The translations under genes were made by a program, and so were the position numbers. Below the pieces are notes generated by a model. The model was not told the DNA's origin. It was given only the letters and a program-made list of their open reading frames with translations, and did not search any database. 64,000 bases of DNA from a virus: IMG/VR virus record IMGVR_UViG_3300023084_000003. One strand, written 5' to 3'. Positions 10,602 through 33,413 of this stretch are shown piece after piece (the first letter of the stretch is position 1; each line of letters opens with the position of its first letter).

Positions 10602-10608
10602 TATTCAC

Positions 10609-11650: not shown

Positions 11651-11651
11651 A

Positions 11652-12347: not shown

Positions 12348-12351
12348 ATTT

Positions 12352-12855
12352 TCACCTTTCCATAATATTAAATTCTATATTTGCCACATCTCTATTTATA
12401 GTCTTTTTTAAGTTTATCACTCTATGCCTAAATTCGTCCGTTTGATTTAAAACCACGATATCATATTTCTTTGGATATATTGTAACACGATTGGGTGAAT
12501 TTTCTCTTTTGATTTCAATCCCGCCACCAGTTGATTCATCCATGTCTGTTAAATACATTAAGAAAGCTATATTAGATCCTTCTATATGATCTGTGTGCCA
12601 TGTATCTGTTTGTTGATCTATACCTCTCCAAGCATCTACATTACCAAAAATAGAATCTTTGTCTTTTAAAATTAAACGATTTATTTTCTTTTGAGTTTTT
12701 CTTAAAAGCCACAAACCTATTGGCCAATAATGAATTGGATATTTCGCTCCATGATTCTTTATCATTGGACATCTATAGAACCACTTTAAATAAGTAAAGA
12801 GTCGTGGATCATTAAAATGATCGTATCCTTCTATTTGTAGCTTTTCATAATTCAT
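12352..12855 (-). CDS. Fe(II)/2OG dioxygenase (prolyl-hydroxylase-like)
   Basis: WHTD...FLMYLTD....GGGIEI...VVLNQTDEFRHRV: HxD...H facial triad and downstream Arg. Confidence 0.8.
   Translation of the reverse strand: MNYEKLQIEGYDHFNDPRLFTYLKWFYRCPMIKNHGAKYPIHYWPIGLWLLRKTQKKINRLILKDKDSIFGNVDAWRGIDQQTDTWHTDHIEGSNIAFLMYLTDMDESTGGGIEIKRENSPNRVTIYPKKYDIVVLNQTDEFRHRVINLKKTINRDVANIEFNIMER
12393..12400 (-). promoter_or_regulatory. Possible embedded late promoter TATAAATA
   Basis: Exact consensus inside the 3' end of the upstream CDS, 46 nt before the ATG at 12347; could be chance. Confidence 0.4.
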
Positions 12856-13262
12856 TCATCTACAGATTCTAAAATCTCTTCTTTGTAATATTCATATATA
12901 TCCGGCACCATACCAGTCATATCAACTTCACCGATAGCATCAAGAATAGCATCATATGTATAACGATCTTCATCGTATGGAACAAAGTAAGGATCGTGCG
13001 GTAATAGTTCTGAGTCGTTTAATGTATCATAGAAATCTTCTTCAAAATCATCACCAATCCATGTCGCATAACAAATCGCTACTACATAAGATTTAGATGG
13101 GTAGATCCATTCATCTACATATTCTTCGAAGTGGCGAACTGCTTCTGTAATAATATCCTCGCCTTCTACTAAATTAATTTCTACGTCTCTCAGATCATCT
13201 TTATATTCTGCATCTCCGTTGACCATACTGAAATATTGCTGCCTGATTTTCCATTCTTTCAT
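12852..13262 (-). CDS. Hypothetical acidic protein in the radical SAM cluster
   Basis: 136 aa, overlaps both neighbours (4 nt and 1 nt); YPSKSYVVAICYA motif. Confidence 0.7.
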   Translation of the reverse strand: MKEWKIRQQYFSMVNGDAEYKDDLRDVEINLVEGEDIITEAVRHFEEYVDEWIYPSKSYVVAICYATWIGDDFEEDFYDTLNDSELLPHDPYFVPYDEDRYTYDAILDAIGEVDMTGMVPDIYEYYKEEILESVDE

Positions 13263-14008
13263 TATGCCTCGTATTCCTTTAGTAATTGTGCCTTATCACA
13301 AAAATCTAGATATGCACTGGTGACTTTATAGTGATTATAGAAAAATAACTTCTTAATTCTTTCCCATATGTTTCTTTCTACCATTGGGTAACCAAACGTA
13401 AATACGATTGATTCGTAATGAGTATATTCACGATTCATTTGAATATTCCAAAACTTGGTAAGATCCTCGTCGGTGTATGGTTTATCTCTCCTGTCTGCAA
13501 TAGGAGAGTTAGCGAACGAGAAATCATCGTAAACTATATGTAGGTGTATTGCGTCAGACCACCAAGGTACTGGTTTCTTTGGCCTTTCGACTGTATTTAT
13601 TGCGTTGTCATACCAGTAAATATCACAACCAAGTTTATTCACTTCTTCTATAAATTCTTGCTTCTGCTCTTTTGTATTAAATACGACTCCTATATACCTG
13701 TGTCTGGAATCGTCGTGGCCTTGACAACTTGTGTATGTCAAGTAGCCTTTCTTATGTAACTCAAGTACTGCCCTCTTCACACCGGGCTCTAAATTTTTAT
13801 CGATTATATCTGAGTACTGACTTACAAATGTGCTTACATATTGCCCAAGATGATCTCGGAACATGTAAGTTCTTCCGTTGACGAGATGTAGATTACCTTT
13901 TTCAAACATAGCATAACGATGACCATCTTCTACACTTCGTAAATGAGGATCGTCTTTTCTGCTATATTCTTGTTGATACTGTACTCTATACTCGTACTGC
14001 GTCTTCAT
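13262..14008 (-). CDS. Hypothetical protein in the radical SAM cluster
   Basis: 248 aa, overlaps neighbours; contains GYLTYTSCQGH. Confidence 0.7.
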   Translation of the reverse strand: MKTQYEYRVQYQQEYSRKDDPHLRSVEDGHRYAMFEKGNLHLVNGRTYMFRDHLGQYVSTFVSQYSDIIDKNLEPGVKRAVLELHKKGYLTYTSCQGHDDSRHRYIGVVFNTKEQKQEFIEEVNKLGCDIYWYDNAINTVERPKKPVPWWSDAIHLHIVYDDFSFANSPIADRRDKPYTDEDLTKFWNIQMNREYTHYESIVFTFGYPMVERNIWERIKKLFFYNHYKVTSAYLDFCDKAQLLKEYEA

Positions 14009-16963: not shown

Positions 16964-17402
16964 AACTAAACATTAATCCTTCTCGTACATTCAATGCTCT
17001 GTGAGGAGTATCTGCGGGTATTTGCCAAAAGTCTCCCTCCTCAAGATTATGAATAACGTCGTTCACTTCAATTGTTTTATGACCAGCACTTACATGTAAT
17101 AATACATCAACTGGGTCGGTATGTACACCAAAACTTGGCGATTCTTTCCAGTATCTAAAAGCATGAATGGTGCCTTCTTTAAAGCCACAAACGTGTTCGA
17201 TACCTTCAACCTTTATTGTATCATTAGATTCTGCAAGCTTTACTTGTACCTTTGCTAAGTACTCATTGTAGTCATCTGATACTATTTTAACATCTTTTCC
17301 ACGATTGTCAATATATAATGTGCGATCATACATATAAGCTTCATGGCTTAGTACGTATTCTTCAAAGTCTTCGTAGGACCATTTTAAATTAGGCAGTTGC
17401 AT
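16905..17402 (-). CDS. JmjC/cupin Fe(II)/2OG oxygenase-like protein
   Basis: SFGVHTDPVDVL...G.K....LEEGDFWQIPADTPHRA: HxD...H with cupin motif, as in ROXA/NO66-type cores. Confidence 0.75.
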   Translation of the reverse strand: MQLPNLKWSYEDFEEYVLSHEAYMYDRTLYIDNRGKDVKIVSDDYNEYLAKVQVKLAESNDTIKVEGIEHVCGFKEGTIHAFRYWKESPSFGVHTDPVDVLLHVSAGHKTIEVNDVIHNLEEGDFWQIPADTPHRALNVREGLMFSYGLSDTEQSECIRQDHGDV

Positions 17403-19305
17403 ACTCTAGTTCCTTTGTTTGAGTAGGCTGAGAAAATGCCCTTACAAAGAGTTCGTTAAGAAGAATGATTTCATTATCGTCTTGTGTGAGTTCCATGATG
17501 CATTCTAATCTAGATTTGTTGCCAATAATTCTTTTCAATCCACGAGGTGGAGTGTCTGGATTCAAAATGTCTACAATATTTTCGTGCACCTCGTCAAAAC
17601 CAGGAATACAATCACGAATTACAGCGTAACACATTCTGCAAAACTCTGCTGGAGTAAGAACATCTTTAAATGTGTCATAATGCTTTTGCAAAAGAATATT
17701 ACCACAAACATTCATAAACCACATCTCATGAAATTCTTCGCGAGTAAATGAATAGCAAGATGCAATTGTTTTAAAGTAAGACTTTAGGCCACGATATAGA
17801 CCATATCTATTATCAGCCCCGCCTTCTTCAATAACATCGGTATAGCATTCCACAACTTCAATATCATACTTTTTTATATATTCAGGATCTGTAAGTTCAG
17901 AATCTGGTAGGAACATATAGTCATGTCTCCATGAACCGTATGATTTAAAGTTATAGTAAATCTCATACTCATTATAGAAGTCATCTATAGTAGATCCAGG
18001 CATTCCTAGAATTAATTCTACGGGTGGCTTTGGATAACCTTCAACGTTGCAACGCTGATTAATATGGCGCGCGAGTGCTAACTTATCTTCTAAATTTAGA
18101 TCAACTCTATTTACTACATCCATAGCTTCTTTACTAATACTTTGGATACTTACTGTTGGAACTACTGAGATATAAAGAGCTTCGCCTTCTGCTGCTTGCT
18201 TTCTTCTAATATCATCTTCCCAGTCTTCTCCATCTTGCTCACCAAAATTATCAACCATTCCACGGCTCGTATTCTGTTCATTGAATACGTGAATTGTGGT
18301 ACCCATAGCCTGATTTTCTGCCGAGCCCATAAAGAACAATGCATGAGAACCTTGCTCAGGTACAAACACTTCTGAGTGCTTCTCTTCGCCTGTTCCTAAC
18401 GTGTCAAACCATGCATCAACAAGTTTCTTTCTTCTTGCAAGGTCTCTTGATTTAAAAGTTGAGATGTCGGTAAGATTAAATCCATTCTTAAAGGTCCAAT
18501 CAAAGATCTCGATGTCTCTTTCTAAGAATGCGCCGAAGTTTGCATCGGTAAGATAAGCATCTCGGAAGCCTGCGTCTTTCAAAGCCTCAACATCTCGCTT
18601 ATAAATGTCTAGATCTTTCTTATAGATCTTAGTACCAATACCTCCGCCCCATTCACAGAATGCACACTTAAATGGACAGCCACGAGTAGATTCTAATGCC
18701 ATGAATGGCTCAAGTACCTGAGTACGAGCCCACTCGCGCATTTCTTTAAGATAATCCATATGTTCTTCATAAACAGAATAATCTTGGTCTGCGATATTTA
18801 GAACACCTTTTTTATTTGAGCGCCATTCCCAAGTTACATCTTCATGTTTTGGCCATTGATTTAAATTATTAAAATATCCATCAAGCAGAGAGTTCATGAA
18901 TATTTCGCCGGGCTTGGTTACCTGACAAATATAATCATATAGTTCATATCTTAGATTCATTAGTTTTGGCTCGTTACGACCAATATGAGGTCCGCCGATT
19001 ACTGTAATAGCTTCTGGGTTTTGCTCTCTTACGAGCTTAGCAACCTCATCGCACATCTGATAGTTCCAAATATATGAACTAAAGCAGTATACGTCAAGAG
19101 GTTCTCCCTGCTCCATATCTTCTTTAATTTCTTGGAAAGATCGATACACGTCAAATTTGTATGTTGCAGGAACAAACTCTACTTTATCGGGATACATTCC
19201 CTCATGTTTATAATGACTTTCTAACATCATCCACGTCAAATTAGACGGCGTTTGCCAATCTGCATGAGGTGGTGACATGTAACCTAAACGTAATTTTTTA
19301 CTCAT
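17389..19305 (-). CDS. Cobalamin-binding radical SAM enzyme (class B-like)
   Basis: N-terminal B12-binding-type FSSYIWN...VIGGPH; ESTRGCPFKCAFCEW (CX3CX2C), LTDANFG, ELILGMPG. Confidence 0.88.
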   Translation of the reverse strand: MSKKLRLGYMSPPHADWQTPSNLTWMMLESHYKHEGMYPDKVEFVPATYKFDVYRSFQEIKEDMEQGEPLDVYCFSSYIWNYQMCDEVAKLVREQNPEAITVIGGPHIGRNEPKLMNLRYELYDYICQVTKPGEIFMNSLLDGYFNNLNQWPKHEDVTWEWRSNKKGVLNIADQDYSVYEEHMDYLKEMREWARTQVLEPFMALESTRGCPFKCAFCEWGGGIGTKIYKKDLDIYKRDVEALKDAGFRDAYLTDANFGAFLERDIEIFDWTFKNGFNLTDISTFKSRDLARRKKLVDAWFDTLGTGEEKHSEVFVPEQGSHALFFMGSAENQAMGTTIHVFNEQNTSRGMVDNFGEQDGEDWEDDIRRKQAAEGEALYISVVPTVSIQSISKEAMDVVNRVDLNLEDKLALARHINQRCNVEGYPKPPVELILGMPGSTIDDFYNEYEIYYNFKSYGSWRHDYMFLPDSELTDPEYIKKYDIEVVECYTDVIEEGGADNRYGLYRGLKSYFKTIASCYSFTREEFHEMWFMNVCGNILLQKHYDTFKDVLTPAEFCRMCYAVIRDCIPGFDEVHENIVDILNPDTPPRGLKRIIGNKSRLECIMELTQDDNEIILLNELFVRAFSQPTQTKELEYATA

Positions 19306-20423: not shown

Positions 20424-21596
20424 TTACGTATGGCTGAATTTATTTAACTGAGTTGTATTTTCTGCAATTTTTAATTGATAAAGATACTCAATCCAAAATG
20501 TATTTATTTTTTCCTGCATATATTCATAGTGCCAAACTTTAGTAGTTCCCTGATAAGTAATATCATCTGCAATAATATCTTCCCAAGCTGTATCTCTTAT
20601 TTCTGTGTTAGATAAGTTTGTTCCATCTATTCTATTAAGCATTCCTTCAGCACCTTTAATAACATCCTGAAGCTCGACGTCGTTAGCATCGTCTGCGTTT
20701 GTATTATCTACAACCCATTGAAGCCATCCCAAGCCTACATCCCAATGCGCAACACGGTATTCCCAGTTTTCTACAAGGGCGTCGTAGGATCTGTCAAAAA
20801 GAAAATCCATATCAGAATTCGCAGCTCTAAGTGAAGTCATCCAGTTTGGATCGGTCCAGTTCAATGTTACGCCAGTCATAGAGCGAACTTTTTCTGTCAT
20901 AATATTATCTCTAATATATTCTCTTAGATCACTAACAATTCCAAAGCCAATTTTTGAATGTATTCTTTGACCTTTTATTGCAATGGGAGTTATTGTAATG
21001 TCACCACACAAATATGCTGCGAGCTGAATCTCAATACACAAACTGTCTCTTAAAGCGTCTCGAACAGACGTATAATAAGAAGCCTCAACAGTATCTGCCG
21101 TATTAAATGCATTATATGCGGTTGCGAATTCTGATTGAGTATACACTGCTTCTGCCATTGCGTCAGCAACTCTAATAGCAGAAAAAGATCTGCTTGACAT
21201 ATTATCAACTTCTACAAGTTTTTCTCTTTGTCTTGTTATATTATAGAGTATAAAAGCAGCGTCAACATCTATATTTGGCATTGCTACTTTAAGCCAAGCA
21301 AAGAACAATTTATGATATGATTCAGCGTCTGCATATATTCTTCCAGACCAATCATTATCATATAAAGATTTAATAAAGTGAGCATATGATTCGTGCTGGC
21401 CCTCATCGCTTCCAATAATATCATCTATTGAAGCTGTCCAATGAAGTATTTCAGTTCCATAGCCAGGACTTGCAAGAGTACTCATATTAGTATATTGATG
21501 CTGATTTCTTTCAACAGAAAATACAGCTCTATCCTGAGAGTTATCATAAGCCCAGTCTGGAGAAACATATACTTTATCAAATAGGTTAAACGACAT
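20424..21596 (-). CDS. Hypothetical protein in the radical SAM cluster
   Basis: 390 aa ORF overlapping the upstream gene by 11 nt; no motif recognised. Confidence 0.7.
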   Translation of the reverse strand: MSFNLFDKVYVSPDWAYDNSQDRAVFSVERNQHQYTNMSTLASPGYGTEILHWTASIDDIIGSDEGQHESYAHFIKSLYDNDWSGRIYADAESYHKLFFAWLKVAMPNIDVDAAFILYNITRQREKLVEVDNMSSRSFSAIRVADAMAEAVYTQSEFATAYNAFNTADTVEASYYTSVRDALRDSLCIEIQLAAYLCGDITITPIAIKGQRIHSKIGFGIVSDLREYIRDNIMTEKVRSMTGVTLNWTDPNWMTSLRAANSDMDFLFDRSYDALVENWEYRVAHWDVGLGWLQWVVDNTNADDANDVELQDVIKGAEGMLNRIDGTNLSNTEIRDTAWEDIIADDITYQGTTKVWHYEYMQEKINTFWIEYLYQLKIAENTTQLNKFSHT

Positions 21597-22683
21597 TCTT
21601 TTTTAATTCCTCTGGTATACATTCGTCCCATTTGCCAGCCGCAATTACTTTTGTTTGTACACAAAGAGTGTTTGCTTCTGTATCAAAGTACGAAAACATG
21701 TTTCTTCCTTTAAATCTATATTCATTAAATTGATTCGTGAAAATCTTTCCTTTTCTATCTCCAATAGATCCTATATAATATCCAATCCAAGGCAGAGCAT
21801 ACGTATTAACAAAGTTAATTCCTACATAGTCTGGATCATCTACCTCTTCAAATGTTTTTTCAACAAAATCGTTAAACTCAGGAATATTTAAACATTGAAA
21901 ATTAAAGATTGGAGATGAGTCTAACATCTCACACCATCTTTTTACAATATCTAAATTCTCTTCAATAAAATCTTCTGCATTATTTAGTCTTTCAAAGTAC
22001 ATGTAAGGTGCTAGTGGATCATCACAAAATTCATCAATTTCTTCTTGATCAACAGTAGGAATATTAGTTCCAAACTCATACATTGGTTTCAGCACTTTCA
22101 TATATTGACAACAAACCGCCAATGCTTCTCTTGCTAACTGCTCAATATCAACCAAAGCTGTTGTTGTGCTCATGTAAGCAGCAACTAATTCTTTTAAAGC
22201 ATCTCTATCATTATAAGTTTCTTCATCAAAATCTGCATCTAGATTCAAGTTACTTAGATAGATCATCAAAGCATTTGCGTCTAGTTTACCAGCTCTATAG
22301 TTAATCTTAAAAGCAGTATTCTCTTTATCCTGAAAGTACTCTTTTAAAACCTCCATAGGTAAAGGACAGCTTGTTTCAATAATCTTTTTTGGTTTTAAAG
22401 CCTGTTTTTTCTTAAGATCTTCTACACTTTCTTGTACATCGTCATTATAAGAGTTGTCTCGGATAACCGCTTGAATCTCTTTACTTACTTGCTCTTTAGA
22501 AGATTTTTTAGGTTTAATATCATCAGCGTTTTCTTCTACGAATTTAAGCACTTCTTCCTTTGTAATGCCTACATTTTTTAAAGCATTCCAAGAAGTAATA
22601 GAAAGATCTTGGTTTCTTTCCCATTCAGATTTTAGAGTTTCAAGTTTTAATCCGGCTTTTTCAATTTTTTCTACAAGATTCAT
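21586..22683 (-). CDS. Hypothetical protein directly downstream of the Cys/His-repeat gene
   Basis: 365 aa; charged helical N-terminus, then ETSCPLPMEVLKEYF...INY...L....MIYLSNLNL; GGA RBS. Confidence 0.7.
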   Translation of the reverse strand: MNLVEKIEKAGLKLETLKSEWERNQDLSITSWNALKNVGITKEEVLKFVEENADDIKPKKSSKEQVSKEIQAVIRDNSYNDDVQESVEDLKKKQALKPKKIIETSCPLPMEVLKEYFQDKENTAFKINYRAGKLDANALMIYLSNLNLDADFDEETYNDRDALKELVAAYMSTTTALVDIEQLAREALAVCCQYMKVLKPMYEFGTNIPTVDQEEIDEFCDDPLAPYMYFERLNNAEDFIEENLDIVKRWCEMLDSSPIFNFQCLNIPEFNDFVEKTFEEVDDPDYVGINFVNTYALPWIGYYIGSIGDRKGKIFTNQFNEYRFKGRNMFSYFDTEANTLCVQTKVIAAGKWDECIPEELKKNVV

Positions 22684-22695
22684 TATATAAATTCC

Positions 22696-23271
22696 TTATC
22701 TTCTTCCTCTAGAACTGTGACAACTTGTATGACAGCTATTGTGACAATACGTAATATCAAAGTCTGCTCTATTATCTTTTAATGTATCCCATGCATTAAA
22801 TAAATTAGTGCAAAGGTTATTAAAATCAGCAGCGTGCGCAACTTCATCTTCTGTAACACCACCACTGTTAACTAATGTCATAGTTTGTCTTTGCCCAGTA
22901 TCACGGACAGTAATACCGTCAGCAGATCCTCTCTCTGTCACTGTGCCACCATCATTCTGGCGAAGCCATCTCACCTTACACTGGCGTATGTTAGTGAGGT
23001 TTCCAGTTGCCGCAGTAAGATGTAAATAAACCTTCACCGCTTCAATAGTCGTACCATCATCACCAATTCCAGTGACTGTTACATCAGAGCTTGGATTATC
23101 TGCAGCATAATTAGCGTCTGGAGCTACCTGCCCATCATCTACGCCTGTAGTCGGTGTGTGTTTTGCTGTAGAATGATACACGATTGTATTGTGGGCTGGA
23201 GTTTCCACCGCATCAATAAATGCCTGTCTCGCTGCTGAATTTTCTATTAAATCGCCTGCTGTTACCGCCAT
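22696..23271 (-). CDS. Putative fibre-tip protein and radical SAM substrate with C-terminal CHxS repeat
   Basis: 191 aa ending YCHNSCHTSCHSSRGRR (22699-22749); start overlaps the stop of the 3369-aa fibre (TAATG). Confidence 0.7.
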   Translation of the reverse strand: MAVTAGDLIENSAARQAFIDAVETPAHNTIVYHSTAKHTPTTGVDDGQVAPDANYAADNPSSDVTVTGIGDDGTTIEAVKVYLHLTAATGNLTNIRQCKVRWLRQNDGGTVTERGSADGITVRDTGQRQTMTLVNSGGVTEDEVAHAADFNNLCTNLFNAWDTLKDNRADFDITYCHNSCHTSCHSSRGRR

Positions 23272-26200
23272 TAGACTTTCACCTCCACTATTCCATTTTC
23301 ACTATTGCTCAATGCGATACCAATGATTTCATGACTATTTATACCGGGCGTGCCGTATGGAACTCCCTTACACTTACCAACAGCTTCTGGATCTGGAATC
23401 AACCACATACCTTTTTTAACATCACCAGATACGAATGCTGGAATACGACCTTTTAGAGCAATAAATGGATTCATTTTAGCTTTTTTAGATTTGTCATTTT
23501 CAATGCCCATATCGTTCATTCTAACGCCAGGTTCTGTAGATATAACACCAACCATTGGTAAACCTTCGCGCCATACTGTAATTTCAGCATCACCATCTAG
23601 ATCAATACCCATTAGAGTGCCTGGCTCATAGATATCATCTGCAGAATATCTTTCCGCAAGGTCAGCCCAGCGAGCGCTTGTTGCAGTACCATTATAAACA
23701 CCATCATTATCAACGTGAGCTTTATCACTTCCATCTCTACGGAACTGACAAATACGGTTTGAGTTACCACCGCCAACAATATAGAAACGATCTGAGTGAT
23801 ATTCAATCTTACCTCTATCGTTACCTGGATCTCCTGTCCATTGAACGTCAGGTTCGTTGAAACGCATGCCTGGAGAATATCCATCTCTGTGAGTCATGCG
23901 GAACATCCATTCTCCGCCTGAGTTTAAGAAACCTTGCCACAACGAATCACTAGAACTATCACCTTCACCATGAATCCAGAAACGACTTCTACCGTCAAAT
24001 GTAGCCAAACCACGAAGGTTCATTGCGCTGTCATTATTGTTACCAGTCATTCTCCATTCTTGGGAATTCGTAGCATAGAAGTCTGTACCATTAGCGTCAT
24101 TGCGCAAGCCGCGGCCGTCACTATCGTTCCGATACCAACCGTCGTTATCAATATTACCTCTAATATCAAGGCTGTTCATGCGTGATGTGCCGGCTGGGTT
24201 CGTATAATAGAAAGTGTTGTTTCTATCATAGAAAATCGGTGCACGCATCGAAGTGTAGGATTGGCTGTTCCCGCTGTTATCTACATAGAAACGTGTAGAT
24301 TGGGCGTCTTCGTCCCAAACCACAAACACGTTTTCATCTGCAGCACCACCAACCATAACGCCGTCATCGGTAATTTTAATAAAACCAACATCAGAACTAT
24401 ATCCAGTTTGAAGAATAAGACCATATCCATCTAGGCCGTAGTTGTAAACTGTTGAGTTTGTGTTTGGAGTTCCTCGTGTAGTTCTGTCACCGTAGAAAAT
24501 ATAACCTTCGTAAGTGTAACTCCCGCCAGTATCAACAAACGATATTTTTCCATTTAATGATAATTCATTTAGCTTTGTAGTACTTGCTGGATCTGCATAG
24601 TAGCCTGAATCATTTCTATCATAGTAAATGTCGCCGTAGACAGAGCCACGAAGATATGAAGTACCATTGATATCGAGAGTATAAGCAGGACCAGATGTCG
24701 TAGATCCACCAAAGCCAGAGCTTATTCTTCTTGCTACTGTAAGATCACCGTTTGTTGTAAGTGACATAGCACCTTGAGCTGTAGTATGACCCGTGTCACC
24801 CCACCAGAAACCACGATCATCCTCATCATTGAACTGGAATGTCATAGCCCAGTCATTCAGAGCACCAAACGTAACATCTGATTGCATACCAATGGCATAA
24901 GATGAGCTACTATAAACACGAATTTTATCACGAGTAGAGTTTGCAGGACCAACAAGCCTGTCGAAATCCATTGTGGAAATATTTGAATTTCCGTTCGGAT
25001 TTATATAGTAATTAGTGTCGTTACTATCATAGAAGATAGGTGCACGGTAGTCACTAGAAGCTTGTCCAGTACCTCTAATATAAGAACCGATTTGTTCCCA
25101 ACCATTAACAGAACCAGCTTCACAAGTACGCATCCATGCTGAGCCAACTGATCCCGTGTAGTTAGATCTTGGATATGCTACTTCTAACCAGTAATCAGAG
25201 CTACCATAGTTCAATCCGTATTCTTGTCCAAGAGATGTTCTTACACGATACCACTGACTTGAACCTGTGTTAGGCGCGTTTGTATTACCTTGTACATAAC
25301 TCCAACCCCAGTGATTAACTGCAGCATTAAAGTCAGTATATGTGTTGTGATTGTACCATTGACCAAACTGACCAACTGCAGAAACACCTTGTGTAGCAGA
25401 TCCTCCAGACCCAGTAACACTATTAAAGCGAAGAACATTTAATCTTGTAGTACCAGCAAAGTCGCCGTAATAGTTCGTATCATTTTTATCATAGTAGATA
25501 GGAATATATGCAGCCCCTGTTGCATAAACTCTACCATTAGAACCATCTAGACCAACTCTTGCATCACCATCTGCTGCAACGTATAGACCCCATCCACCAA
25601 GAACACTATTGATACCATCGTAATTGGCATTCGGGTGTGAATAACCAATACCGTACATATTTTCCAAGTTACCATCGGTTGGGTTGTAGTTCGAACCGAT
25701 TGTGTAAATTGGGTTTGTTTTGGTTGAGTTGGCGCCGATATTATTATATGAACCAACTAGGTGGCCTCGAGAGTGGCCTGGTCTATAGCGATAATCAACG
25801 TTAGTACCGTTCATTCTAGACGTAGAGTTACCATCAAAGAAGTAACTGGTATTACTCTGATCGTAGAATACAGTACCTCGTACATCGCCTTGAGCAGTAA
25901 TATTACCGAAGTAAGATCTCATGTTGTATGGACTACCGCCAGCAACTGAACCTAGCGTTCCACGGAAACCTTGACCTGAAAGAATTGTATTTGTAGAATC
26001 TGCTGGACTACCTGGCTCAACTTTTGTGCTGCCGTCATTAGTAGTAATACCATCCTGGCGAATCCATCTCCACCATAACTGCGAATCCCAAGTACAGCCA
26101 TTCATTCTCAACCATAGATATCTATTGTTGTCAATTCTAACTTCTGGAGTAATACTATCGTTTGGATAATTTGTCTGATGGCCGACTGACATTGTCGAGT

Positions 26201-29200
26201 TGTTCCAAGAAGAAACAACCACAGTACCTTTTACAAAGCCTGAATAGTTTACATCATCCTTTGCGTAATATTCAAGAATACCTTTCGCCCCGCCGGTGTT
26301 TGTACGGCCAACGCGGATCCAATAATAACGAGTTCCATTGGTTGAGTCATAAACATATGTACTTGTGTTATACCACCTACCGGTCCAAGGTTGGTTTTGC
26401 GAATAACCACCAACTGTTAAACCGTTAAGGTTAGATGTGCCTGCCGGATCAACATAATATGAGGTATTATCATTATCATACATGCTGTCAGCAAACAAGA
26501 TGTTCTCAACGCGTACGTTATCGTCGCCTTTACCTACTGAGAAGATCTCAGATCCACCGCCGGCGTCTCTTCTTGAGTCATTGTAGAATCGTGTACCACC
26601 GTATGATTTGTTAGCTCCGATTTGAATACCAGTATGCCAGTTCAAGCGAAGCTTAGAGTAATCACCACCGTAATTCTCCTTATCAACATAGATCATGTAG
26701 TAAGGTTGGCTATCGGATCTCTGACCCCATGAAATGCCTGTTACACCCCCGTCAGCTTGAGACGGATCTGATGTAGAATCCCAAAGATTGAGGTGACGAC
26801 CTGGACCAGTAGAGCTACCGTCTCTAAGTAGGAACCCACCGCCGAGCTCTTCGTATCTGTCAGAACGGAAAGCATCTGCCGCCTGGACTGTGTTTAGATT
26901 AGATGTACTTGCCGGATCAAGATAGTAATTTGTATCATTTGTGTCGTAGAATATTGGAGCTCTAACAGATGCGTTATGATAGAACTGAGCAGAATCCATC
27001 TCGCCCATAAGAGTTCTACCATAGTGCATAAATCTTAGTTTACCGCCACTTGCTCCTGATGTAGTTTTATTACCAGAAATACCGGCGTATTCACGGTATG
27101 TGCCACCATTATCTTTTAATCTAAAGTAAAAACCTGCACCAACAGAAGAACTACTATTATCATGGTTTGCACGAGCCAAACGAAGAACGCCATAATCTAC
27201 TGAGTTGCTATTTGTTCCAGTATCTTGAATCATATCAAATGTTACCGGCCCTCCAGTAGTTTGAGAGCGGAAATTGGCCGTACTGGTGCCGGTATTGAAA
27301 TACAAGGAGTTGCTGCTGTACAACCTAATGTTAGACATTCTCGATTCGCTAGCAAAGTTGCCATAATATGAAGTATTATTTGAATCGTAATAGATCGGAG
27401 ATCTCATATTGGATGATGCATAAGCCTCACCGCCAACATGGAAAGTATATGAGGGGCTTGTGGCATTAATACCAACTCTACCATTGTACATCCATGTCAT
27501 AAGCTCGGTGCCGCTAGAAGTAAAGTCAGCACCAAACAAACTGCCACTATTAAATCTCAGGAACATGTTACCAGTAAATTTGTCATCCATACCAAACATG
27601 AATGATGAGTCGCCAGTACTGCTTCCTCCAGTTAGATCGCTGAATTCAATGCCAACGTCACCGTTGTAATTCATAAATCTCATGCGGCCTTCGTTGTTGG
27701 CATCACCCAACATATCCATCCAAACTTCTGTGCCGTTGTTATCAAGCCTAACTCTACCAGCAAGGCGCATTGCCTCACCGGTGCTGTTTGGATTTATATA
27801 ATAAGATGTGTTATTAATATCATAGAAGATAGGAGCGCGCATATCGCCTCTGGCTTGCAGAGAACCACCATTTGTTGCTCTAAATTGATACTGCTGAGCT
27901 CCACCAGTAGTTGCAGTAAACTGTAGATTACCGCCTGAGTTTGTAGTTAGATCATCTGGCGATTCATAAATTCTCCAGTCAGTACCACCTTTCCAACGAA
28001 TACCTTCGTTAGGACCCGGATCATTAAACGCTATATCGTTCAGGTTATCAATGGTACCATTATTCCAGTTCCATGAACCTTCAACACTACCGCCAGTAGC
28101 TGGGTTCATGTATCTTGCAGTATTATCACGATCACGGAAGTTGCTTGCATCAACAGTATTCATCTTAGATGTTGAAGCAGGATTTACATAAAAGTTATTG
28201 TCATTGCTGTCATAGAAGATAGGCGCATAAAGGTTACCTGAGAATCTTGCTTCTTGGGCATCGATGTTTGAAAGATAGTTTGTACGTCTTACAATCGGAG
28301 GACCAAATTCGCGAACAGCACCAGAACCTGCATAGTTCATCAATACGATAACACGAATATATTTACATCCACCGCCGTCAGAACCGTTAAATGGTGAATG
28401 CGACGTTGGAATTGTATGATGGGCTTTATATGTAGTCCAACCCGTGCTTGTTACATTTGCAGCAGAAGCTACAAAATATGTGATACCATCGTTACCTGCA
28501 ATAGGGTTCTTATCTTTATCGTATCTACGTACACCCATATAAAGATAACGAGTACCACCAGAGTCAGAACCACTTACAAGTCTAGCCGAGATCTCACCGT
28601 AGATCTCCATGCCAGGCTCAACTGCGATATAGTCAGAGTCGAATGTTCTGTAACCACTTGTTCTTAGAGCATATGAAGCCTCAAAAGGACCGTCATTATT
28701 TTTGACGAAATCAGCAGTTGAAGTTGTAGCAGAGTCTTCTGCTCCTTGCATAACCTGAATAACACGTTTTTCCCAATATTCAGTACCGTCGAATATAACA
28801 GTATCGGCTTTACCGGAACCATATGCTTTAATAAGGCTAAGATCTTCATTACCGCCGTTAAGAGCAATGTTAGCAAAACGGCCAGTACCGTATGCTTGGA
28901 AATCACCATTTTCTTCAAACCAGAATCTATCACCGATAGAATTAAAGTGAACAATAAAGTTCGAACGATTGTTTCTGTCGTCATGGACCAACCAAGGATA
29001 GTTAGCATCAGCTGCACTATTTTTAAACGCAGCCAAATAACGGTTAGCGTGATGGATCTTAAATGGATACGTGCTGTCAGTAGAAATTCTAGCTTGGTCA
29101 CCAACCGAGATAGACTTCATTCTAGAGTCTGATGCAAAGTCTCCCCAGTATGCAGTGTCTGCGCTATCATAGTAGATAGGAGCACGCATTTGGTTATTAG

Positions 29201-32200
29201 CAAGTAGATAACCATTTCCGGTTTCAGCTTGCTTTGTACCGTTGTACATAATTTCTGTTTGAGCATTATCATACCAACGAGTCATCCACTCATTGCGAGT
29301 ATCGTTGTAGATACCAGCATTCACGTTTCCATCTGACATGAATACCCAATCATCTTGGATAGCATAACCTGCCCATCCACCTTTAGCGCCACCAACTCTA
29401 ATAGAGCCGTAGTCACCAGAAGGTGAATCTATAATGTATGTAGAGCCATCAATTTGATACTGATTAGCTCTTTGTACGTTGTGAAGAGATGTGCCGGCTT
29501 GATCAGTATAATATGCAGTATTGTTTCTATCGTAGTATCTTGTAGCATATGCTTCGTTTTGTACATATAATCTACCACGGTTATCAGTACCTCTGAGGTT
29601 ACCAACATACCAAGCACCCGTAGAACTAACACCACCATTATATTGAAGAGCTCCAGTAGAAGCAGTTGTATAGAAACCAATACCGGAATCTTCGTTTGTT
29701 TTACCAGTACCAGTACGGAAGTCTTCTGCTGTAATCATTGCTACAGTATCAGCATCTGTACCACTAATACCTGACGCACTTACCCCTGAAGCACCAGTTA
29801 CTTTAAACTGAAGTTGACCATACATGTCGCCCGGTGAAGTAGCGTTACTTGGAGCAGAATTAATTTCCAACTTAGTTGGAGTATTTGCGCCGGCAGCATT
29901 AGCTGTTCCGCCTGTAACTTGGAATGTTTGATGAGAGTATGTTCTACCTGAAGCAATTTGAATTCTGTTACCGGCGCTTCCAGCTCTACGAAGATTTAAG
30001 TCTTCATTATAACTATGAACTTCACCAGTGTCAACAGTAATTCCTTTATTAAAATAGAATTTATCACGGTCTGTTTGAATATGAGCCCACGACGTGTTCA
30101 TCGGACCGAAGTCAATGTAACCGGAAGGAGTACTCAGCCTCCAACCATTTGCTACACCCTGAGGTTCAAACGTGTAAGAAGTGTTTGCTCTGTCAACAAG
30201 CTTATGAGTACGAAGTTCATTGATAACATCAACATAAGTTGTATAGATGTTCATCTCTTCGTTGCCACCTGCAGAGAAACCAATTGTATCTGCTGCTTTG
30301 CGATACATACCTGTGTTTGTATCAGATACAAATGAGTATGTTGGTGAACCTAGTTGACCGTTTCCGCCAAGAACTTCACCTGCAATTTTAAGAGCAACAT
30401 CTGTATTAGCAGGATCTAGATAGTAAGTCGTGTCGTCCTTATCTACGAATCTTGTTGCTTCGATGTCATTATTAGCTTGGAACTTAACGCTGTTACTTAC
30501 TTTAAGGTAAGAAGCATTGTCCATATACAAACCGCTTCCAGAACCGAACGCAAGTTCATCTTGTGTCAATATAGTTGAATTAGAAGTTCCAACCACAAAG
30601 CCATCGGCCGCACCATTAACTATAACCGAGCCATCTACGTGTAATTTGTTACCATTGACTGCACCAGTTACGAGTGTAGCATTATCATGAGAAGCATTTG
30701 TAGCGCTATCGTTATTGACAATTACGTCACCGCTGTTTAGAATTGCAAACTTACCACTTGCTCCACTATCATAGAAATACCAATCTTTATCTTGATCACT
30801 GATAAAGTAAGCATGTTGTTGAGAACTACCACGAATACTGAAATCTACTTGTGCAGCTTCTCCAAAGTTAATTAATCTGTTAGCATCTGCAAATGGATTG
30901 CTACCCATTTGGCCTGTTGTTCTTACAGATAGTCTTGCTGCTGGAGCATTATCACCAATACCAACGTTACCTCTGGTTGCGCTAGCAAGAGATATATTTA
31001 AGTTGCTTGTTGCCTTCGTGGAAAGAGAACCTAAAGACAACATATCGTCGTCAGCTAACATGTAGCCAGTAGCGAACGATCCGCCTTGATCTAGAATAAT
31101 ACCAATGCGCTGATCGGTAGATGTAAGTCTAATATAATCACTAGTTCCGGTGTTTACTTCAAACTGATATATGTGAGAATTAGTGCCGATACCAACGTGA
31201 CCGTCATCGTTAATGTTAACAGCCTCAATGCCATTAGAGTAAATGCTGAAATTATCAGGTGCACTCCATCCCAAATAACTATTAGTATCTCCATTGTGGA
31301 AAAGATAATCATCTAATCCTAATGAATGAAATACTGAGTCGTCAGCAGGATTTGCATAATAAGTAGTGTTGTCTCTGTCATAGAAGTAAGATGCTCTAAT
31401 ACCACCGGATGGTGTAACATCTACATAAGTATTTCTTACATCTAATCTTAGTGCTCCGTTTGTTGAAATGCCAACTCTGTCTGCGCCTGGAGTGTACAAG
31501 CCGGTATTTGTATCAGATCCAAATGAATACGTTGGAAGAGCTGCAGTTCCGCTAGCACCTCTTGCTTGCCCAGCAAAAGATAATGAAACTCCAGTATCAC
31601 CGAAGTTTGCATAATAAGAATTATTATCAGAGTCATAATAAGCAGGAGCATAAACATTTTGAGTAAAGTCCGCAGAATCGCTATCAATATTTACTCGCTC
31701 GCCGCCACCTGTATAGATTTTAAATACGTTATCCGCTGAGAAACCAAAGTATGATGTTGTATTACCACGATGACGAATAAAATCATCTAAGTCGATACGT
31801 TGCATCTCAGATATACCGGCAGGATTTGTAAAGTATGCAGTATCATTTGCATCTACAAATCTTGGAGCAACTAGATCTGTGCCAACAGTAACTGCAGAAG
31901 CAGTCGTCGTGAATACAGTGTTACCACCTGCCGTTAGAGTAATTTGGTTATCGGTAAATTCTAGATAGGTGTCTGTATCACCATTGTGAAGCAATCTATC
32001 ATCGATGCCTACTCTGTTCATTACAGACGTTGCAGCGAAATCACCATAATAAGCTTGGTTGTCGTTATCGTAATATGTCGGTGAATACATCGCATTGACT
32101 GCTGTCACACCGTTATTGTTAACAACAAGTCTTTGGGAGTTACCAGTTCTAACTTCTAAAGAGTCAGCAGCATTAAAATTAATGAAGGTGTCTGCGTCGC

Positions 32201-33371
32201 CGTCTGCAATGATTTGACCGTACAACTCGATATCATTTATATGAGATGTGGCCGCGGGTTCTACGTAATAAGAAGCATTGTCTGCATCTACAAATTGCTC
32301 AGCGACAACATTTCTTCCTACAATCCAGTCATCATTAGTATCTGATCTTGCAGCATAGTTAAGTGAAGAGTTTAAGAAACCAATTTCACCAAGACTTGAA
32401 TACAGAGATCTGTTAACGTTTTGGCCGTCCATAATAAGCTGAGCGCCGGCCGCAGTATTATTACCAAGAGTTAGAGTTCCTTGGAAGATATAGTTGCCTG
32501 TTCCAGTATCATTTGCATCTGAACGCAAGAATTGAGCAGCTTCTAATCCGTCGACAGTGTCTGCATCAAAACCATTACCGGAGCCTTCATCAGCAGTTGT
32601 AATAATTCTACCAAGTGGGGTACCGTTTGTTTCAATCTGCCAATAATCAGATGTTTCATTCCACACAAGAGCTGGGTTTGTAAGAGTACCGCGTTCTACT
32701 TCAATACCAGCATTTTCTGTTGGAGTACTTCCTGTATAGTTTGCATTTAGAGTGATAATGTTATCAGAAAGTAGAATCTCTTCTGTATTGATATATGTAG
32801 TTACACCTTGTACTGTGAGGTTGCCCGTAATAGTAAGGCTACCGTCCATAGTATCATCTTCATCTGCACGAAGGAATTGTAGTGAATCAAGTCCATCGAG
32901 TAAGTCGGCGTCCAAACCAGAACCTGCGCCATCGTTACCAGCATTCCAGAATACGTTACCTAGATACTGCGGCTCGCGTTTAAAGTCAATACCAGTTGAG
33001 CTAAATTCAAGATCGGTTGCACCATTATAAACAATTTCAACACCGTCGGTATCGTCATAGAATCTAATACCATTGTTTTGACCTGAGTTAGTAAGCTCAT
33101 AATCACCTGAACCAAAATTTACAAGTTGAAGACTATCTGAATCACCTCTAAATTCTGCGATAATTGAATTTGCCGCATGACCTCCAGTATTGAAGATCTG
33201 CATTGTTGCTAAACTTGCATTTGATTGAGTAAACGATGCCGATCCAGTAAATAGTGAACTACCGGTTACTTGTAACTCGTCTGTGCTGTTAAATGAAGTT
33301 GAGCCTACTACAATCGCACCAGTTGGTGACAATAGGCCATTTTTGACTATAAACTTTTTATCGTTTGCCAT
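23271..33371 (-). CDS. Long tail fibre protein (~3366 aa) with C-terminal intramolecular chaperone (Peptidase G2-like)
   Basis: About 20 repeats like RAPIFYDxNxTxYYxxPxxTS; GSGLDADLLDG motifs; C-terminal TATSARWADLAERY...VGVIST.PG..MN...IALKGRIP. The ATG at 33371 fits the GGGGAG RBS better than the track's GTG at 33380. Confidence 0.85.
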   Translation of the reverse strand: MANDKKFIVKNGLLSPTGAIVVGSTSFNSTDELQVTGSSLFTGSASFTQSNASLATMQIFNTGGHAANSIIAEFRGDSDSLQLVNFGSGDYELTNSGQNNGIRFYDDTDGVEIVYNGATDLEFSSTGIDFKREPQYLGNVFWNAGNDGAGSGLDADLLDGLDSLQFLRADEDDTMDGSLTITGNLTVQGVTTYINTEEILLSDNIITLNANYTGSTPTENAGIEVERGTLTNPALVWNETSDYWQIETNGTPLGRIITTADEGSGNGFDADTVDGLEAAQFLRSDANDTGTGNYIFQGTLTLGNNTAAGAQLIMDGQNVNRSLYSSLGEIGFLNSSLNYAARSDTNDDWIVGRNVVAEQFVDADNASYYVEPAATSHINDIELYGQIIADGDADTFINFNAADSLEVRTGNSQRLVVNNNGVTAVNAMYSPTYYDNDNQAYYGDFAATSVMNRVGIDDRLLHNGDTDTYLEFTDNQITLTAGGNTVFTTTASAVTVGTDLVAPRFVDANDTAYFTNPAGISEMQRIDLDDFIRHRGNTTSYFGFSADNVFKIYTGGGERVNIDSDSADFTQNVYAPAYYDSDNNSYYANFGDTGVSLSFAGQARGASGTAALPTYSFGSDTNTGLYTPGADRVGISTNGALRLDVRNTYVDVTPSGGIRASYFYDRDNTTYYANPADDSVFHSLGLDDYLFHNGDTNSYLGWSAPDNFSIYSNGIEAVNINDDGHVGIGTNSHIYQFEVNTGTSDYIRLTSTDQRIGIILDQGGSFATGYMLADDDMLSLGSLSTKATSNLNISLASATRGNVGIGDNAPAARLSVRTTGQMGSNPFADANRLINFGEAAQVDFSIRGSSQQHAYFISDQDKDWYFYDSGASGKFAILNSGDVIVNNDSATNASHDNATLVTGAVNGNKLHVDGSVIVNGAADGFVVGTSNSTILTQDELAFGSGSGLYMDNASYLKVSNSVKFQANNDIEATRFVDKDDTTYYLDPANTDVALKIAGEVLGGNGQLGSPTYSFVSDTNTGMYRKAADTIGFSAGGNEEMNIYTTYVDVINELRTHKLVDRANTSYTFEPQGVANGWRLSTPSGYIDFGPMNTSWAHIQTDRDKFYFNKGITVDTGEVHSYNEDLNLRRAGSAGNRIQIASGRTYSHQTFQVTGGTANAAGANTPTKLEINSAPSNATSPGDMYGQLQFKVTGASGVSASGISGTDADTVAMITAEDFRTGTGKTNEDSGIGFYTTASTGALQYNGGVSSTGAWYVGNLRGTDNRGRLYVQNEAYATRYYDRNNTAYYTDQAGTSLHNVQRANQYQIDGSTYIIDSPSGDYGSIRVGGAKGGWAGYAIQDDWVFMSDGNVNAGIYNDTRNEWMTRWYDNAQTEIMYNGTKQAETGNGYLLANNQMRAPIYYDSADTAYWGDFASDSRMKSISVGDQARISTDSTYPFKIHHANRYLAAFKNSAADANYPWLVHDDRNNRSNFIVHFNSIGDRFWFEENGDFQAYGTGRFANIALNGGNEDLSLIKAYGSGKADTVIFDGTEYWEKRVIQVMQGAEDSATTSTADFVKNNDGPFEASYALRTSGYRTFDSDYIAVEPGMEIYGEISARLVSGSDSGGTRYLYMGVRRYDKDKNPIAGNDGITYFVASAANVTSTGWTTYKAHHTIPTSHSPFNGSDGGGCKYIRVIVLMNYAGSGAVREFGPPIVRRTNYLSNIDAQEARFSGNLYAPIFYDSNDNNFYVNPASTSKMNTVDASNFRDRDNTARYMNPATGGSVEGSWNWNNGTIDNLNDIAFNDPGPNEGIRWKGGTDWRIYESPDDLTTNSGGNLQFTATTGGAQQYQFRATNGGSLQARGDMRAPIFYDINNTSYYINPNSTGEAMRLAGRVRLDNNGTEVWMDMLGDANNEGRMRFMNYNGDVGIEFSDLTGGSSTGDSSFMFGMDDKFTGNMFLRFNSGSLFGADFTSSGTELMTWMYNGRVGINATSPSYTFHVGGEAYASSNMRSPIYYDSNNTSYYGNFASESRMSNIRLYSSNSLYFNTGTSTANFRSQTTGGPVTFDMIQDTGTNSNSVDYGVLRLARANHDNSSSSVGAGFYFRLKDNGGTYREYAGISGNKTTSGASGGKLRFMHYGRTLMGEMDSAQFYHNASVRAPIFYDTNDTNYYLDPASTSNLNTVQAADAFRSDRYEELGGGFLLRDGSSTGPGRHLNLWDSTSDPSQADGGVTGISWGQRSDSQPYYMIYVDKENYGGDYSKLRLNWHTGIQIGANKSYGGTRFYNDSRRDAGGGSEIFSVGKGDDNVRVENILFADSMYDNDNTSYYVDPAGTSNLNGLTVGGYSQNQPWTGRWYNTSTYVYDSTNGTRYYWIRVGRTNTGGAKGILEYYAKDDVNYSGFVKGTVVVSSWNNSTMSVGHQTNYPNDSITPEVRIDNNRYLWLRMNGCTWDSQLWWRWIRQDGITTNDGSTKVEPGSPADSTNTILSGQGFRGTLGSVAGGSPYNMRSYFGNITAQGDVRGTVFYDQSNTSYFFDGNSTSRMNGTNVDYRYRPGHSRGHLVGSYNNIGANSTKTNPIYTIGSNYNPTDGNLENMYGIGYSHPNANYDGINSVLGGWGLYVAADGDARVGLDGSNGRVYATGAAYIPIYYDKNDTNYYGDFAGTTRLNVLRFNSVTGSGGSATQGVSAVGQFGQWYNHNTYTDFNAAVNHWGWSYVQGNTNAPNTGSSQWYRVRTSLGQEYGLNYGSSDYWLEVAYPRSNYTGSVGSAWMRTCEAGSVNGWEQIGSYIRGTGQASSDYRAPIFYDSNDTNYYINPNGNSNISTMDFDRLVGPANSTRDKIRVYSSSSYAIGMQSDVTFGALNDWAMTFQFNDEDDRGFWWGDTGHTTAQGAMSLTTNGDLTVARRISSGFGGSTTSGPAYTLDINGTSYLRGSVYGDIYYDRNDSGYYADPASTTKLNELSLNGKISFVDTGGSYTYEGYIFYGDRTTRGTPNTNSTVYNYGLDGYGLILQTGYSSDVGFIKITDDGVMVGGAADENVFVVWDEDAQSTRFYVDNSGNSQSYTSMRAPIFYDRNNTFYYTNPAGTSRMNSLDIRGNIDNDGWYRNDSDGRGLRNDANGTDFYATNSQEWRMTGNNNDSAMNLRGLATFDGRSRFWIHGEGDSSSDSLWQGFLNSGGEWMFRMTHRDGYSPGMRFNEPDVQWTGDPGNDRGKIEYHSDRFYIVGGGNSNRICQFRRDGSDKAHVDNDGVYNGTATSARWADLAERYSADDIYEPGTLMGIDLDGDAEITVWREGLPMVGVISTEPGVRMNDMGIENDKSKKAKMNPFIALKGRIPAFVSGDVKKGMWLIPDPEAVGKCKGVPYGTPGINSHEIIGIALSNSENGIVEVKV
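23336..23343 (-). promoter_or_regulatory. Embedded late promoter TATAAATA upstream of the Cys/His-repeat gene
   Basis: Exact consensus within the last codons of the fibre gene, 65 nt upstream of the ATG at 23271. Confidence 0.5.
24190..32310 (-). repeat. Dispersed ~20-aa joint motif repeated about 20 times in the long fibre
   Basis: Manual count of [RY]APx[FY]YDx[ND][DN]TxYYx[DN][PF]xxxS variants in the translation. Confidence 0.85.
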
Positions 33372-33413
33372 TCGGTTCACTCTCCCCAGTTTGGCGTATA
33401 TTCTGCTTTGATA

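Follow-up and report, generated by a model that had tools for sequence, protein, structure and literature searches.

Comparison with known radical-SAM maturation systems

Maturation by radical S-adenosylmethionine (radical-SAM) enzymes has been known so far for short peptides (RiPPs, which ribosomes synthesise and which are modified after translation), for a few enzymes (sulfatases and methyl-coenzyme M reductase) and, since 2026, for one bacterial antiphage effector. In the HXS antiphage system, the folded HxS-repeat protein HxsA is matured by the radical-SAM enzymes HxsB and HxsC with HxsD, and a modification of +8 Da is found on SHRSS (Li et al. 2026, PMC13128918). The stretch of viral DNA analysed here (64,000 nucleotides of IMG/VR record IMGVR_UViG_3300023084_000003, the whole of which is termed the window) encodes a 191-residue protein, P0001, which ends in a Cys- and His-containing tail of 16 residues, termed the tag, and lies beside a cassette of radical-SAM enzyme genes. 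The tag travels with the same set of radical-SAM enzymes, suggesting that an as yet undescribed step of chemical finishing on a fibre-associated protein most likely has the tag as its target. The probability that the tail is a substrate of this cassette is estimated to be roughly 0.6. Papers on CP220/CPt10, FLC6 and pelagimyophages mention radical-SAM genes of phages and assign no function to them, and no paper containing the tag sequences or describing the system was found in the literature.

The nearest functional analogue is the HXS system. HxsA is a folded protein of approximately 200 residues with tandem His-x-Ser units that are rich in basic residues; its maturation requires at least two radical-SAM enzymes, and the modification has been located on an S-H-R-S-S unit (PMC13128918). 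HxsA is thus a precedent for radical-SAM maturation of a folded HxS-repeat protein, and this precedent supports the possibility that the tail of P0001 is a substrate. However, the HXS system belongs to bacteria, where it serves in defence, and its substrate is processed at the N-terminus and exported into the periplasm, whereas the system in the window is encoded by phages and predators, and its tag is C-terminal, has a period of four residues, contains invariant Cys residues, ends in RGRR and is accompanied by four SPASM-type paralogues and oxygenases. The first-pass annotation of this DNA likened the tag to HXS precursors and to the aromatic-x-x motif of triceptides. Both the H-x-S and the aromatic-x-x units are present, but P0001 does not match the HxsA model, and the cassette enzymes score below the cut-offs for HXS and triceptide maturases: 30.7 bits against HxsB (TIGR03978, cut-off 370) and at most 24.8 bits against HxsC (TIGR03977, cut-off 268). 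Neither unk136 nor unk248, two small proteins of the cassette, matches HxsD in NCBIfam, a comparison with sequence models only.

The triceptide systems (ChlB, XyeB, GrrM/OscB and YhhB) resemble that of the window in that an aromatic-x-x unit (His or Tyr, x, Ser/Asn) occurs three times in the tag. ChlB (9gm3) is the top PDB match of the profile of rSAM353, one of the four SPASM-type paralogues, with an E-value of 1.8e-8 that covers only radical-SAM core residues 8-107. However, E-values of about 1e-8 are no better than those for thioether or sulfatase maturases, the invariant Cys residues of the tag have no counterpart in triceptide motifs, and the scores against the triceptide maturase models are 15-33 bits (cut-offs: XyeB 450, GrrM 310, YhhB 445, AmcB 425). 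Sactipeptides, ranthipeptides and CXXX-repeat peptides (SCIFF/CteB, PapA/PapB, TIGR04115) have regularly spaced Cys residues beside SPASM-type radical-SAM enzymes, as has the window, and CteB is among the best PDB matches of the rSAM353 profile. The proposal that the tag matches SCIFF/ranthipeptide and CXXX-repeat targets holds for this spacing and fails beyond it, since P0001 matches no SCIFF or CXXX-repeat model and the maturase scores are 21-40 bits against cut-offs of 340-350 (40.2 bits at best, for rSAM353 against PapB NF047865, cut-off 340 bits; 23.8 bits for rSAM369 against the CXXX-repeat model TIGR04115, cut-off 350 bits). The substrates of these families are short leader-plus-core peptides with one maturase, whereas P0001 is a folded protein with an obligatory His per Cys and four enzymes. 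It is likewise unlike the SCIFF precursor, which is a peptide of about 45 residues with six Cys, in being a folded protein of 191 residues with three tag Cys.

Sulfatases are modified at the motif C-x-P/A-x-R. The anaerobic sulfatase-maturating enzyme (anSME; TIGR03942, PDB 4K36-4K39) belongs to the SPASM enzymes and has a complete folded protein as its substrate, and the last repeat of the tag, C-H-S-S-R, has Cys and Arg at the spacing of this motif. rSAM350 and rSAM353 match TIGR03942 with E-values of 3e-12 and 9e-10, but their scores of 46.3 and 38.2 bits compare with a cut-off of 349 bits, the last repeat is C-H-[SGNT]-S-R with Ser, Gly, Asn or Thr at position 3 and without Pro/Ala, and no sulfatase domain is present. 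The matches of the rSAM353 profile to ChlB, CteB and anSME in the PDB all have E-values of about 1e-8, and the scores of all four SPASM-type enzymes against NCBIfam maturase models with cut-offs of 268-650 bits are 15-48 bits, so that these profile and model matches do not discriminate among the chemistries. Judged by these comparisons, the kit is probably a radical-SAM maturation system for a ribosomally made protein, which is uncharacterised and falls at the cut-offs into none of the named families tested (SCIFF, CXXX-repeat, HXS, triceptide and anSME).

Structure of the tagged protein

The translation of P0001 ends in ...DFDITY-CHNS-CHTS-CHSS-RGRR, as reported in the first-pass annotation at identical coordinates, with the codon for Tyr175 at 22747-22749 and the stop codon at 22696-22698. 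The Cys residues noted there at every fourth position are C176, C180 and C184, and the His-x-Ser triplets are H-N-S, H-T-S and H-S-S. In the window, a single match to the degenerate DNA pattern that encodes CHxxCHxxCH is present, while 0.00 matches are expected (100 shuffles). The motif is not a chance occurrence.

P0001 has no match in Pfam and none in NCBIfam at E<=0.01, and its best PHROG match is phrog_35144 (unknown function, 1.2e-8). The AlphaFold2 model of P0001 (116 sequences) consists of a confident alpha/beta domain, with a predicted local distance difference test score (pLDDT) of 89.9 and a predicted template modelling score of 0.85. Its final strand stops at residue 176, and the tag lies beyond it with a pLDDT of about 56. 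In this model, the tag is a flexible tail of 16 residues on a confidently folded domain of 175 residues, and it is probably accessible to enzymes, because it is a low-confidence tail past the last strand. Such an exposed tail suits an enzyme substrate, but could also be ordered around a metal in an oligomer. The term core peptide, used for the tag in the first-pass annotation, is inexact, because the tag is attached to a folded domain, no leader is present, and no peptidase family is found when the cluster proteins are scanned with Pfam and NCBIfam. The lack of a leader and of a cluster protease suggests maturation of a protein rather than of a classical RiPP.

A Foldseek search of the PDB with the tagged domain gives nothing at E<=0.001, the VIA wide fold search gives a best Z of 3.4 and no clear solved-fold match, and the search of BFVD, a viral library, gives uncharacterised family members only. 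Three paralogues of 504-660 residues in the uncultured myovirus ctijX18 contain the carrier-domain fold (BFVD A0A8S5USJ8, A0A8S5USJ7 and A0A8S5USV2), indicating that larger architectures of the P0001 family exist. P0001 itself is present on 47 contigs, the longest of which is 221.7 kb.

Conservation and portability of the tag

C176, H177, S179, C180, H181, C184, H185, S187, R188, R190 and R191 are invariant in 19 homologues of 185-192 residues with identities down to 23%. Loss of the motif among homologues, which was named in the first-pass annotation as a point that would speak against it, is therefore not observed. When the pattern is searched at C-termini, 134 of the 169 family proteins collected have CH..CH..CH..R.RR as their exact end. 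Among 1.84 billion representatives, a profile search detects 582 clusters with E<=1e-3, of which 214 reach E<=1e-10, so that the family comprises at least 582 clusters at 50% identity; nearly all of these relatives have 175-215 residues, with the profile reaching the last residue of the protein. The logo of the tag is [VYI]-C-H-[SATN]-[SN]-C-H-[STN]-[SN]-C-H-[SGN]-[SN]-R-[GS]-R-R-COOH. The third place of the His-x-Ser unit is Ser or Asn in at least 95% of the tags, and only small polar residues (S/T/A/N/G) occupy the x positions. Across the family, the carrier domain diverges to approximately 20% identity while the tag stays invariant. The tag is encoded by 62 distinct DNA versions, in which TGT/TGC, CAT/CAC and both codon families of Ser and of Arg are freely used. 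This result indicates that selection acts on the peptide and not on the DNA.

Variants of the tag among the relatives contain one extra residue before RR or Tyr in place of His, and some relatives contain up to six CHxx units followed by further domains. The locus L060:9359-10063 has a doubled tag with two CHxx triplets in series, and the locus L047:9548-10904 has two tandem tagged genes ending in CHSSCHSNVTCYNSRGRR, with Tyr for His and a two-residue insertion. The exchange of His for Tyr would be compatible with an aromatic cross-link chemistry.

The tag is also found on a second carrier family, whose members have 126-140 residues and are often encoded by a tandem gene pair behind a giant fibre-like gene in many T4-like viral contigs, both genes of the pair ending in the tag. 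When a protein of this family is compared with P0001 by BLASTP, 15 of the 16 tag residues align and nothing else does; when the tags are removed, no similarity is detected (E 4.5). The tag is thus the only element common to at least two carrier families. A tblastn search of named phages with either the whole of P0001 or its last 26 residues gives no match, yet a regular-expression search of the loci detects the tag in RSL2, Atu_ph07, Phosso and pPa_SNUABM_DT01, indicating that the blank tblastn results are an artefact of sensitivity or filtering and do not reflect absence of the tag.

Linkage of the tag with the radical-SAM enzymes

The cassette proteins of the window were compared by phmmer with all open reading frames (ORFs) of 67 other tagged loci, which are IMG/VR contigs, metagenome contigs, four named phages and contigs of Bdellovibrio metagenome-assembled genomes (MAGs). 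Inspection of these neighbourhoods reveals at least one radical-SAM orthogroup in 62 of the 67 loci, at least two in 54 and all four in 28. The five loci without a radical-SAM orthologue end less than 8.2 kb downstream of the tag. These loci are cut short; in sister contigs, the enzymes begin at roughly this distance past the tag. The orthogroups are sharply separated; for example, one ORF matches rSAM350 at 1e-147 and the next paralogue at 1e-8. This result suggests that the four enzymes are old and distinct and are not recent copies. The core set consists of rSAM353, rSAM369, rSAM350, rSAM311, unk136, unk365 and the cupin protein, with the B12-binding enzyme, unk390 and unk248 as accessories. 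Many T4-like loci have the tagged genes coupled to the fibre gene and the enzymes located about 8 kb away on the other strand.

The carriers include marine T4-like phages, the jumbo phages RSL2, Atu_ph07, Phosso and pPa_SNUABM_DT01, and Bdellovibrio MAG contigs. In Ralstonia phage RSL2, Agrobacterium phage Atu_ph07, Sinorhizobium phage Phosso and Pseudomonas phage pPa_SNUABM_DT01, the gene order is cupin, rSAM353 orthologue and tagged gene, and the tagged genes are annotated as hypothetical only. A dihydrofolate reductase gene (RSL2 ORF073, L005:10822-11358) lies within the radical-SAM cassette of RSL2 and its relatives. The virion proteome of Ralstonia phage RP31 was considered as evidence and set aside, because the radical-SAM cluster of this phage is a different one and is uninformative here. 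The contigs binned as Bdellovibrio carry the whole cassette. On one of them (L065:505-3069), it adjoins genes for FabH and an AMP-binding protein of acyl-CoA-synthetase type, flanks that suggest a chromosomal location, and on another (L064:4421-6572) it lies beside two Peptidase_S74 fibre-like genes. These neighbourhoods suggest that the predatory bacterium may use the same kit, perhaps for its own adhesive fibres. A distant freshwater cassette, on a 24-kb contig of JGI metagenome 3300010885, includes NifU_N and IscA-type (Fe-S_biosyn) genes, and its phage may bring its own Fe-S assembly helpers for the radical-SAM enzymes.

All five radical-SAM enzymes of the window contain the CX3CX2C cluster motif near the N-terminus, and the auxiliary-cluster cysteines of SPASM domains are present in the enzymes that neighbour the tagged gene. 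rSAM353 scores 27.7 bits against SPASM PF13186, over the cut-off of 21.5, and its CX3CX2C motif and eight auxiliary Cys residues are invariant in 24 orthologues. The auxiliary-cluster motif is CX2CX5CX3C in rSAM369, the close variant CX2CX5CX2C in rSAM350 and the reduced form CX2CX5CX3H in rSAM311. The nearest models and structures of the cassette enzymes, as far as profile matches indicate, are all those of peptide or protein maturases. Of the earlier proposal that the tag is the target of several SPASM enzymes, the part concerning the target gains support, in that the tag is conserved, portable and genomically locked to several radical-SAM/SPASM enzymes as expected of a target, whereas the sequence is compatible with several chemistries. 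The predicted complex of rSAM353, three 4Fe-4S clusters, SAM and the tagged protein has a score of 0.07, which weighs neither for nor against binding.

Association with fibre genes

The window is part of a large T4-like myovirus, has every long ORF on one strand, and is nearly complete in many salt-marsh metagenomes. The stop codon of the giant fibre-like gene overlaps the start codon of the tagged gene in the sequence TAATG, and orthologues of this 3369-residue protein, which has no match in Pfam, precede the tagged gene or genes in 37 other loci. A GGAGGTG Shine-Dalgarno sequence lies between the putative late promoter, the octamer TATAAATA, and the start of the tagged gene. Contigs from four salt-marsh RNA libraries cover the tagged gene, and two of them span the gene entirely together with both junctions, which is consistent with its transcription. 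One relative of P0001 fuses a Gly-rich domain (PF21722), which matches a tail-fibre-assembly PHROG, to the tagged domain, and in other relatives six CHxx units are followed by an Ig-like or a BspA-type leucine-rich repeat (LRR) domain. These fusions and the location of the tagged gene behind fibre genes suggest a role on a surface or as an adhesin within the host-recognition apparatus.

The arrangement resembles that of gp38 of T-even phages, in that a small gene follows a long fibre gene and is coupled translationally to its 3' end, and the relative with the Gly-rich domain adds to this likeness. However, P0001 has no GP38 sequence match in Pfam and no clear solved-fold match. By analogy of position, P0001 may act as an adhesin, and it may be present in the virion. 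A GP38-family adhesin gene is present elsewhere in the window at 2425-3429 (-) (Pfam PF05268, 4.6e-6), directly behind a gene for a 1098-residue fibre-like protein at 3432-6725 (-), indicating that the layout of a fibre gene followed by a small tip gene is used elsewhere in this phage too.

Proposed modification of the tail and alternative explanations

The tail of P0001 is proposed to be a portable recognition-and-modification module, which forms a flexible C-terminal extension of a folded protein. The tagged protein would be encoded, and probably expressed, with the phage fibre genes, and the side chains of Cys, His (sometimes Tyr) and Ser/Asn in its tail would be modified covalently by the four paralogous radical-SAM/SPASM-type enzymes. 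In this phage, the set would also include the B12-radical-SAM enzyme, the cupin/JmjC protein, three 2-oxoglutarate (2OG) oxygenases, unk365 and unk136. The most likely product would be a small cross-linked knot resistant to oxidation and proteases, built from Cys thioether and/or aromatic-to-C-beta links, possibly with conversion of Cys to formylglycine at the terminal C-x-x-S-R, and located on a surface protein of fibre-tip or adhesin type. Candidate chemistries are Cys thioether formation as in ranthipeptides and sactipeptides, a His/Tyr-to-C-beta cyclophane on H-x-S/N as in triceptides, formylglycine formation as by anSME and an HXS-like change of +8 Da, all of which are possible by analogy. 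That the tail is a substrate is suggested by five features: nothing but the tag is both conserved and portable, the tag is linked to the enzymes at every locus except the five cut-short ones, the enzymes are of the peptide- or protein-modifying SPASM branch, the non-ligand positions are limited to small polar residues, and His can be exchanged for Tyr.

Several points weigh against this interpretation. It is built throughout on the linkage of genes and the logic of sequences. Metals are classically bound by Cys and His, and an unmodified metal-binding tail explains their conservation equally well. The cassette enzymes all score below the cut-off of every characterised maturase family, and neither a RiPP recognition element (RRE) nor a PqqD-like element is recognised in the cluster by model and fold searches. 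When relatives with degenerate or expanded tags (P0152, P0136 and P0125) are checked for loss of particular enzymes, no clean pattern emerges. The contigs from RNA libraries could derive from carried-over DNA, and in RefSeq the neighbouring ORF065 of RSL2 is called a virion structural protein, whereas the tagged ORF068 is called hypothetical only.

HxH iron sites are present in T4 gp37. The tail of P0001 might likewise be an unmodified Cys/His metal or Fe-S site, which either holds an oligomeric fibre-tip protein together or serves as a cluster scaffold or electron carrier for the neighbouring radical-SAM enzymes; if it were an accessory of these enzymes, they would truly act on something else, for example a small molecule or the giant fibre. 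The three Cys and three His, fixed in their spacing, make good ligands, the tail that is flexible in the monomer model could be ordered upon metal binding or oligomerisation, and the distant freshwater locus has NifU- and IscA-like genes beside the cassette. Nevertheless, a metal site, the main alternative, is considered unlikely, because it leaves unexplained the invariant Ser/Asn at position 4 of the repeat, the limitation of position 3 to small residues, the invariant R-x-R-R carboxy terminus and the exchange of His for Tyr. For an enzyme accessory, it is odd that the tagged genes stay coupled to fibre genes with the enzymes on the other strand in so many T4-like loci, and tandem tagged paralogues and adhesion-type fusions look like substrates or cargo rather than cofactor carriers.

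Pyrroloquinoline quinone and mycofactocin are peptide-derived products that are excised after cross-linking. The tail might be the precursor of such a small molecule or cofactor, cross-linked on its carrier and then excised, with the folded domain merely acting as a scaffold. An invariant core on a variable carrier is the pattern of peptide-derived cofactors, several radical-SAM/SPASM enzymes and oxygenases are available, and the nearest models include maturases of cofactor and RiPP type. This explanation is nonetheless improbable, because the conserved core set contains no recognisable peptidase, the large carrier is sited in a fibre module, and in some relatives the repeat is internal, lying between the domain and Ig-like or LRR domains, an arrangement that is incompatible with release of a C-terminal product. 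It is hardly credible that the tag and the enzymes share one hypervariable host-recognition region as passengers without a functional relation. Marine myophages have mosaic host-recognition clusters, in which radical-SAM cassettes have been described as variable additions (PMC7029224), as such passengers would be. However, the co-occurrence of tag and enzymes holds across genomes of unrelated types (T4-like phages, phiKZ-like and other jumbo phages and Bdellovibrio contigs), and survives differing gene orders.

It is tentatively suggested, as a doubtful extension of the proposal that the tail is a substrate, that, both in phages of widely differing lineages and in Bdellovibrio-like predators, radical-SAM enzymes finish a protein of fibre-tip or adhesin type by installing a multiply cross-linked Cys-His knot on it. 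If so, this would be a new class of post-translational maturation of the host-recognition apparatus, and the function of the knot could be that of a redox-proof metal site or of a reactive warhead in attachment to the surface of the prey. A conserved multi-enzyme kit, carried by viruses from marine T4-like ones to 490-kb jumbo phages and aimed at a protein of the fibre module, would add a new layer to the building of host-recognition machines, and four uncharacterised SPASM orthogroups with a defined 16-residue substrate would become available to enzymologists. The question is directly testable, because culturable carriers exist (RSL2, Atu_ph07, Phosso, pPa_SNUABM_DT01 and FLC phages). The tag also provides a simple genome-mining handle on the system.

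Gene organisation of the window

The coordinates of the tagged gene, the flanking fibre gene and the cassette are summarised in Table 1; the cassette genes lie downstream of the tagged gene, in the order of the table.

Table 1. Location of the tagged gene, its tag and the associated genes in the window
Feature	Coordinates	Strand	Remarks
Gene for tagged protein P0001, 191 aa	22696..23271	-	Folded alpha/beta carrier domain (residues 1-176) and C-terminal tag
C-terminal tag CHNS-CHTS-CHSS-RGRR, residues 176-191, proposed modification site	22699..22746	-	Invariant Cys/His/Arg, small polar x positions, synonymous codon variation, low pLDDT
Giant fibre-like protein, 3369 aa, translationally coupled to tagged gene	23271..33380	-	Weak tail-fibre PHROG match at residues 3229-3338
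Octamer TATAAATA, T4 late-promoter consensus, putative promoter	23336..23343	-	About 65 nt upstream of tagged gene; read from sequence
unk365, 365 aa, unknown function	21586..22683	-	phrog_20767; orthologue follows tagged gene in most loci (33 loci)
unk390, 390 aa, unknown, accessory	20424..21596	-	Present in 14 loci
rSAM369, radical-SAM enzyme, 369 aa	19302..20411	-	CX3CX2C at 41-48, C-terminal CX2CX5CX3C; orthologue in 57 of 67 tagged loci
B12-binding radical-SAM enzyme, 638 aa, accessory	17389..19305	-	KedN5-type model 102 bits, below cut-off; 9 loci
Cupin/JmjC-like protein, 165 aa	16905..17402	-	Cupin_2 29.7 bits, JmjC_2 23.6 bits; 28 loci, usually just upstream of rSAM353 orthologue
rSAM353, radical-SAM/SPASM enzyme, 353 aa	15902..16963	-	SPASM PF13186 27.7 bits; in most non-T4 loci directly upstream of tagged gene
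rSAM350, radical-SAM/SPASM-like enzyme, 350 aa	14890..15942	-	51-60% identical orthologues in 15 records of named jumbo phages
rSAM311, radical-SAM enzyme, 311 aa	13986..14921	-	Reduced auxiliary motif CX2CX5CX3H; orthologue in 46 loci
unk248, 248 aa, unknown, accessory	13262..14008	-	Present in 6 loci
unk136, 136-aa core partner, mostly helical	12852..13262	-	phrog_20737; orthologue in 46 loci
Three 2OG-Fe(II) oxygenase genes (167, 231 and 197 aa), closing the cluster	11090..12855	-	

A terminator scan inside the cluster gives no more terminator-like sites than shuffled sequence. unk365 has no match in Pfam, and neither unk365 nor unk136 has a usable match in the ESM Atlas. Fold searches with unk136 give nothing in Foldseek and a best Z of 3.2 in VIA; the protein was considered as an RRE, and the call was rejected, because the weak winged-helix matches are insufficient for it. 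Two adjacent small DUF7936 proteins are encoded just past the oxygenase genes at 10263-11007 (-).

Other structural genes of the window include that for a 3637-residue giant virion structural or tail-fibre protein at 45778-56691 (-), with repeated strong PHROG matches (phrog_701 1e-135, phrog_5342 2e-116), and that for a 1581-residue fibre at 40618-45363 (-), which has 8 stretches of collagen triple-helix repeats and, at its C-terminus, a Peptidase_S74 chaperone. The latter is followed at 40192-40518 (-) by a gene for a 108-residue protein that matches tail-fibre-assembly PHROGs. A gene at 7202-7954 (-) encodes a cytidylyltransferase-like domain fused to a cupin of mannose-6-phosphate-isomerase type, which may have a role in sugar-nucleotide metabolism.

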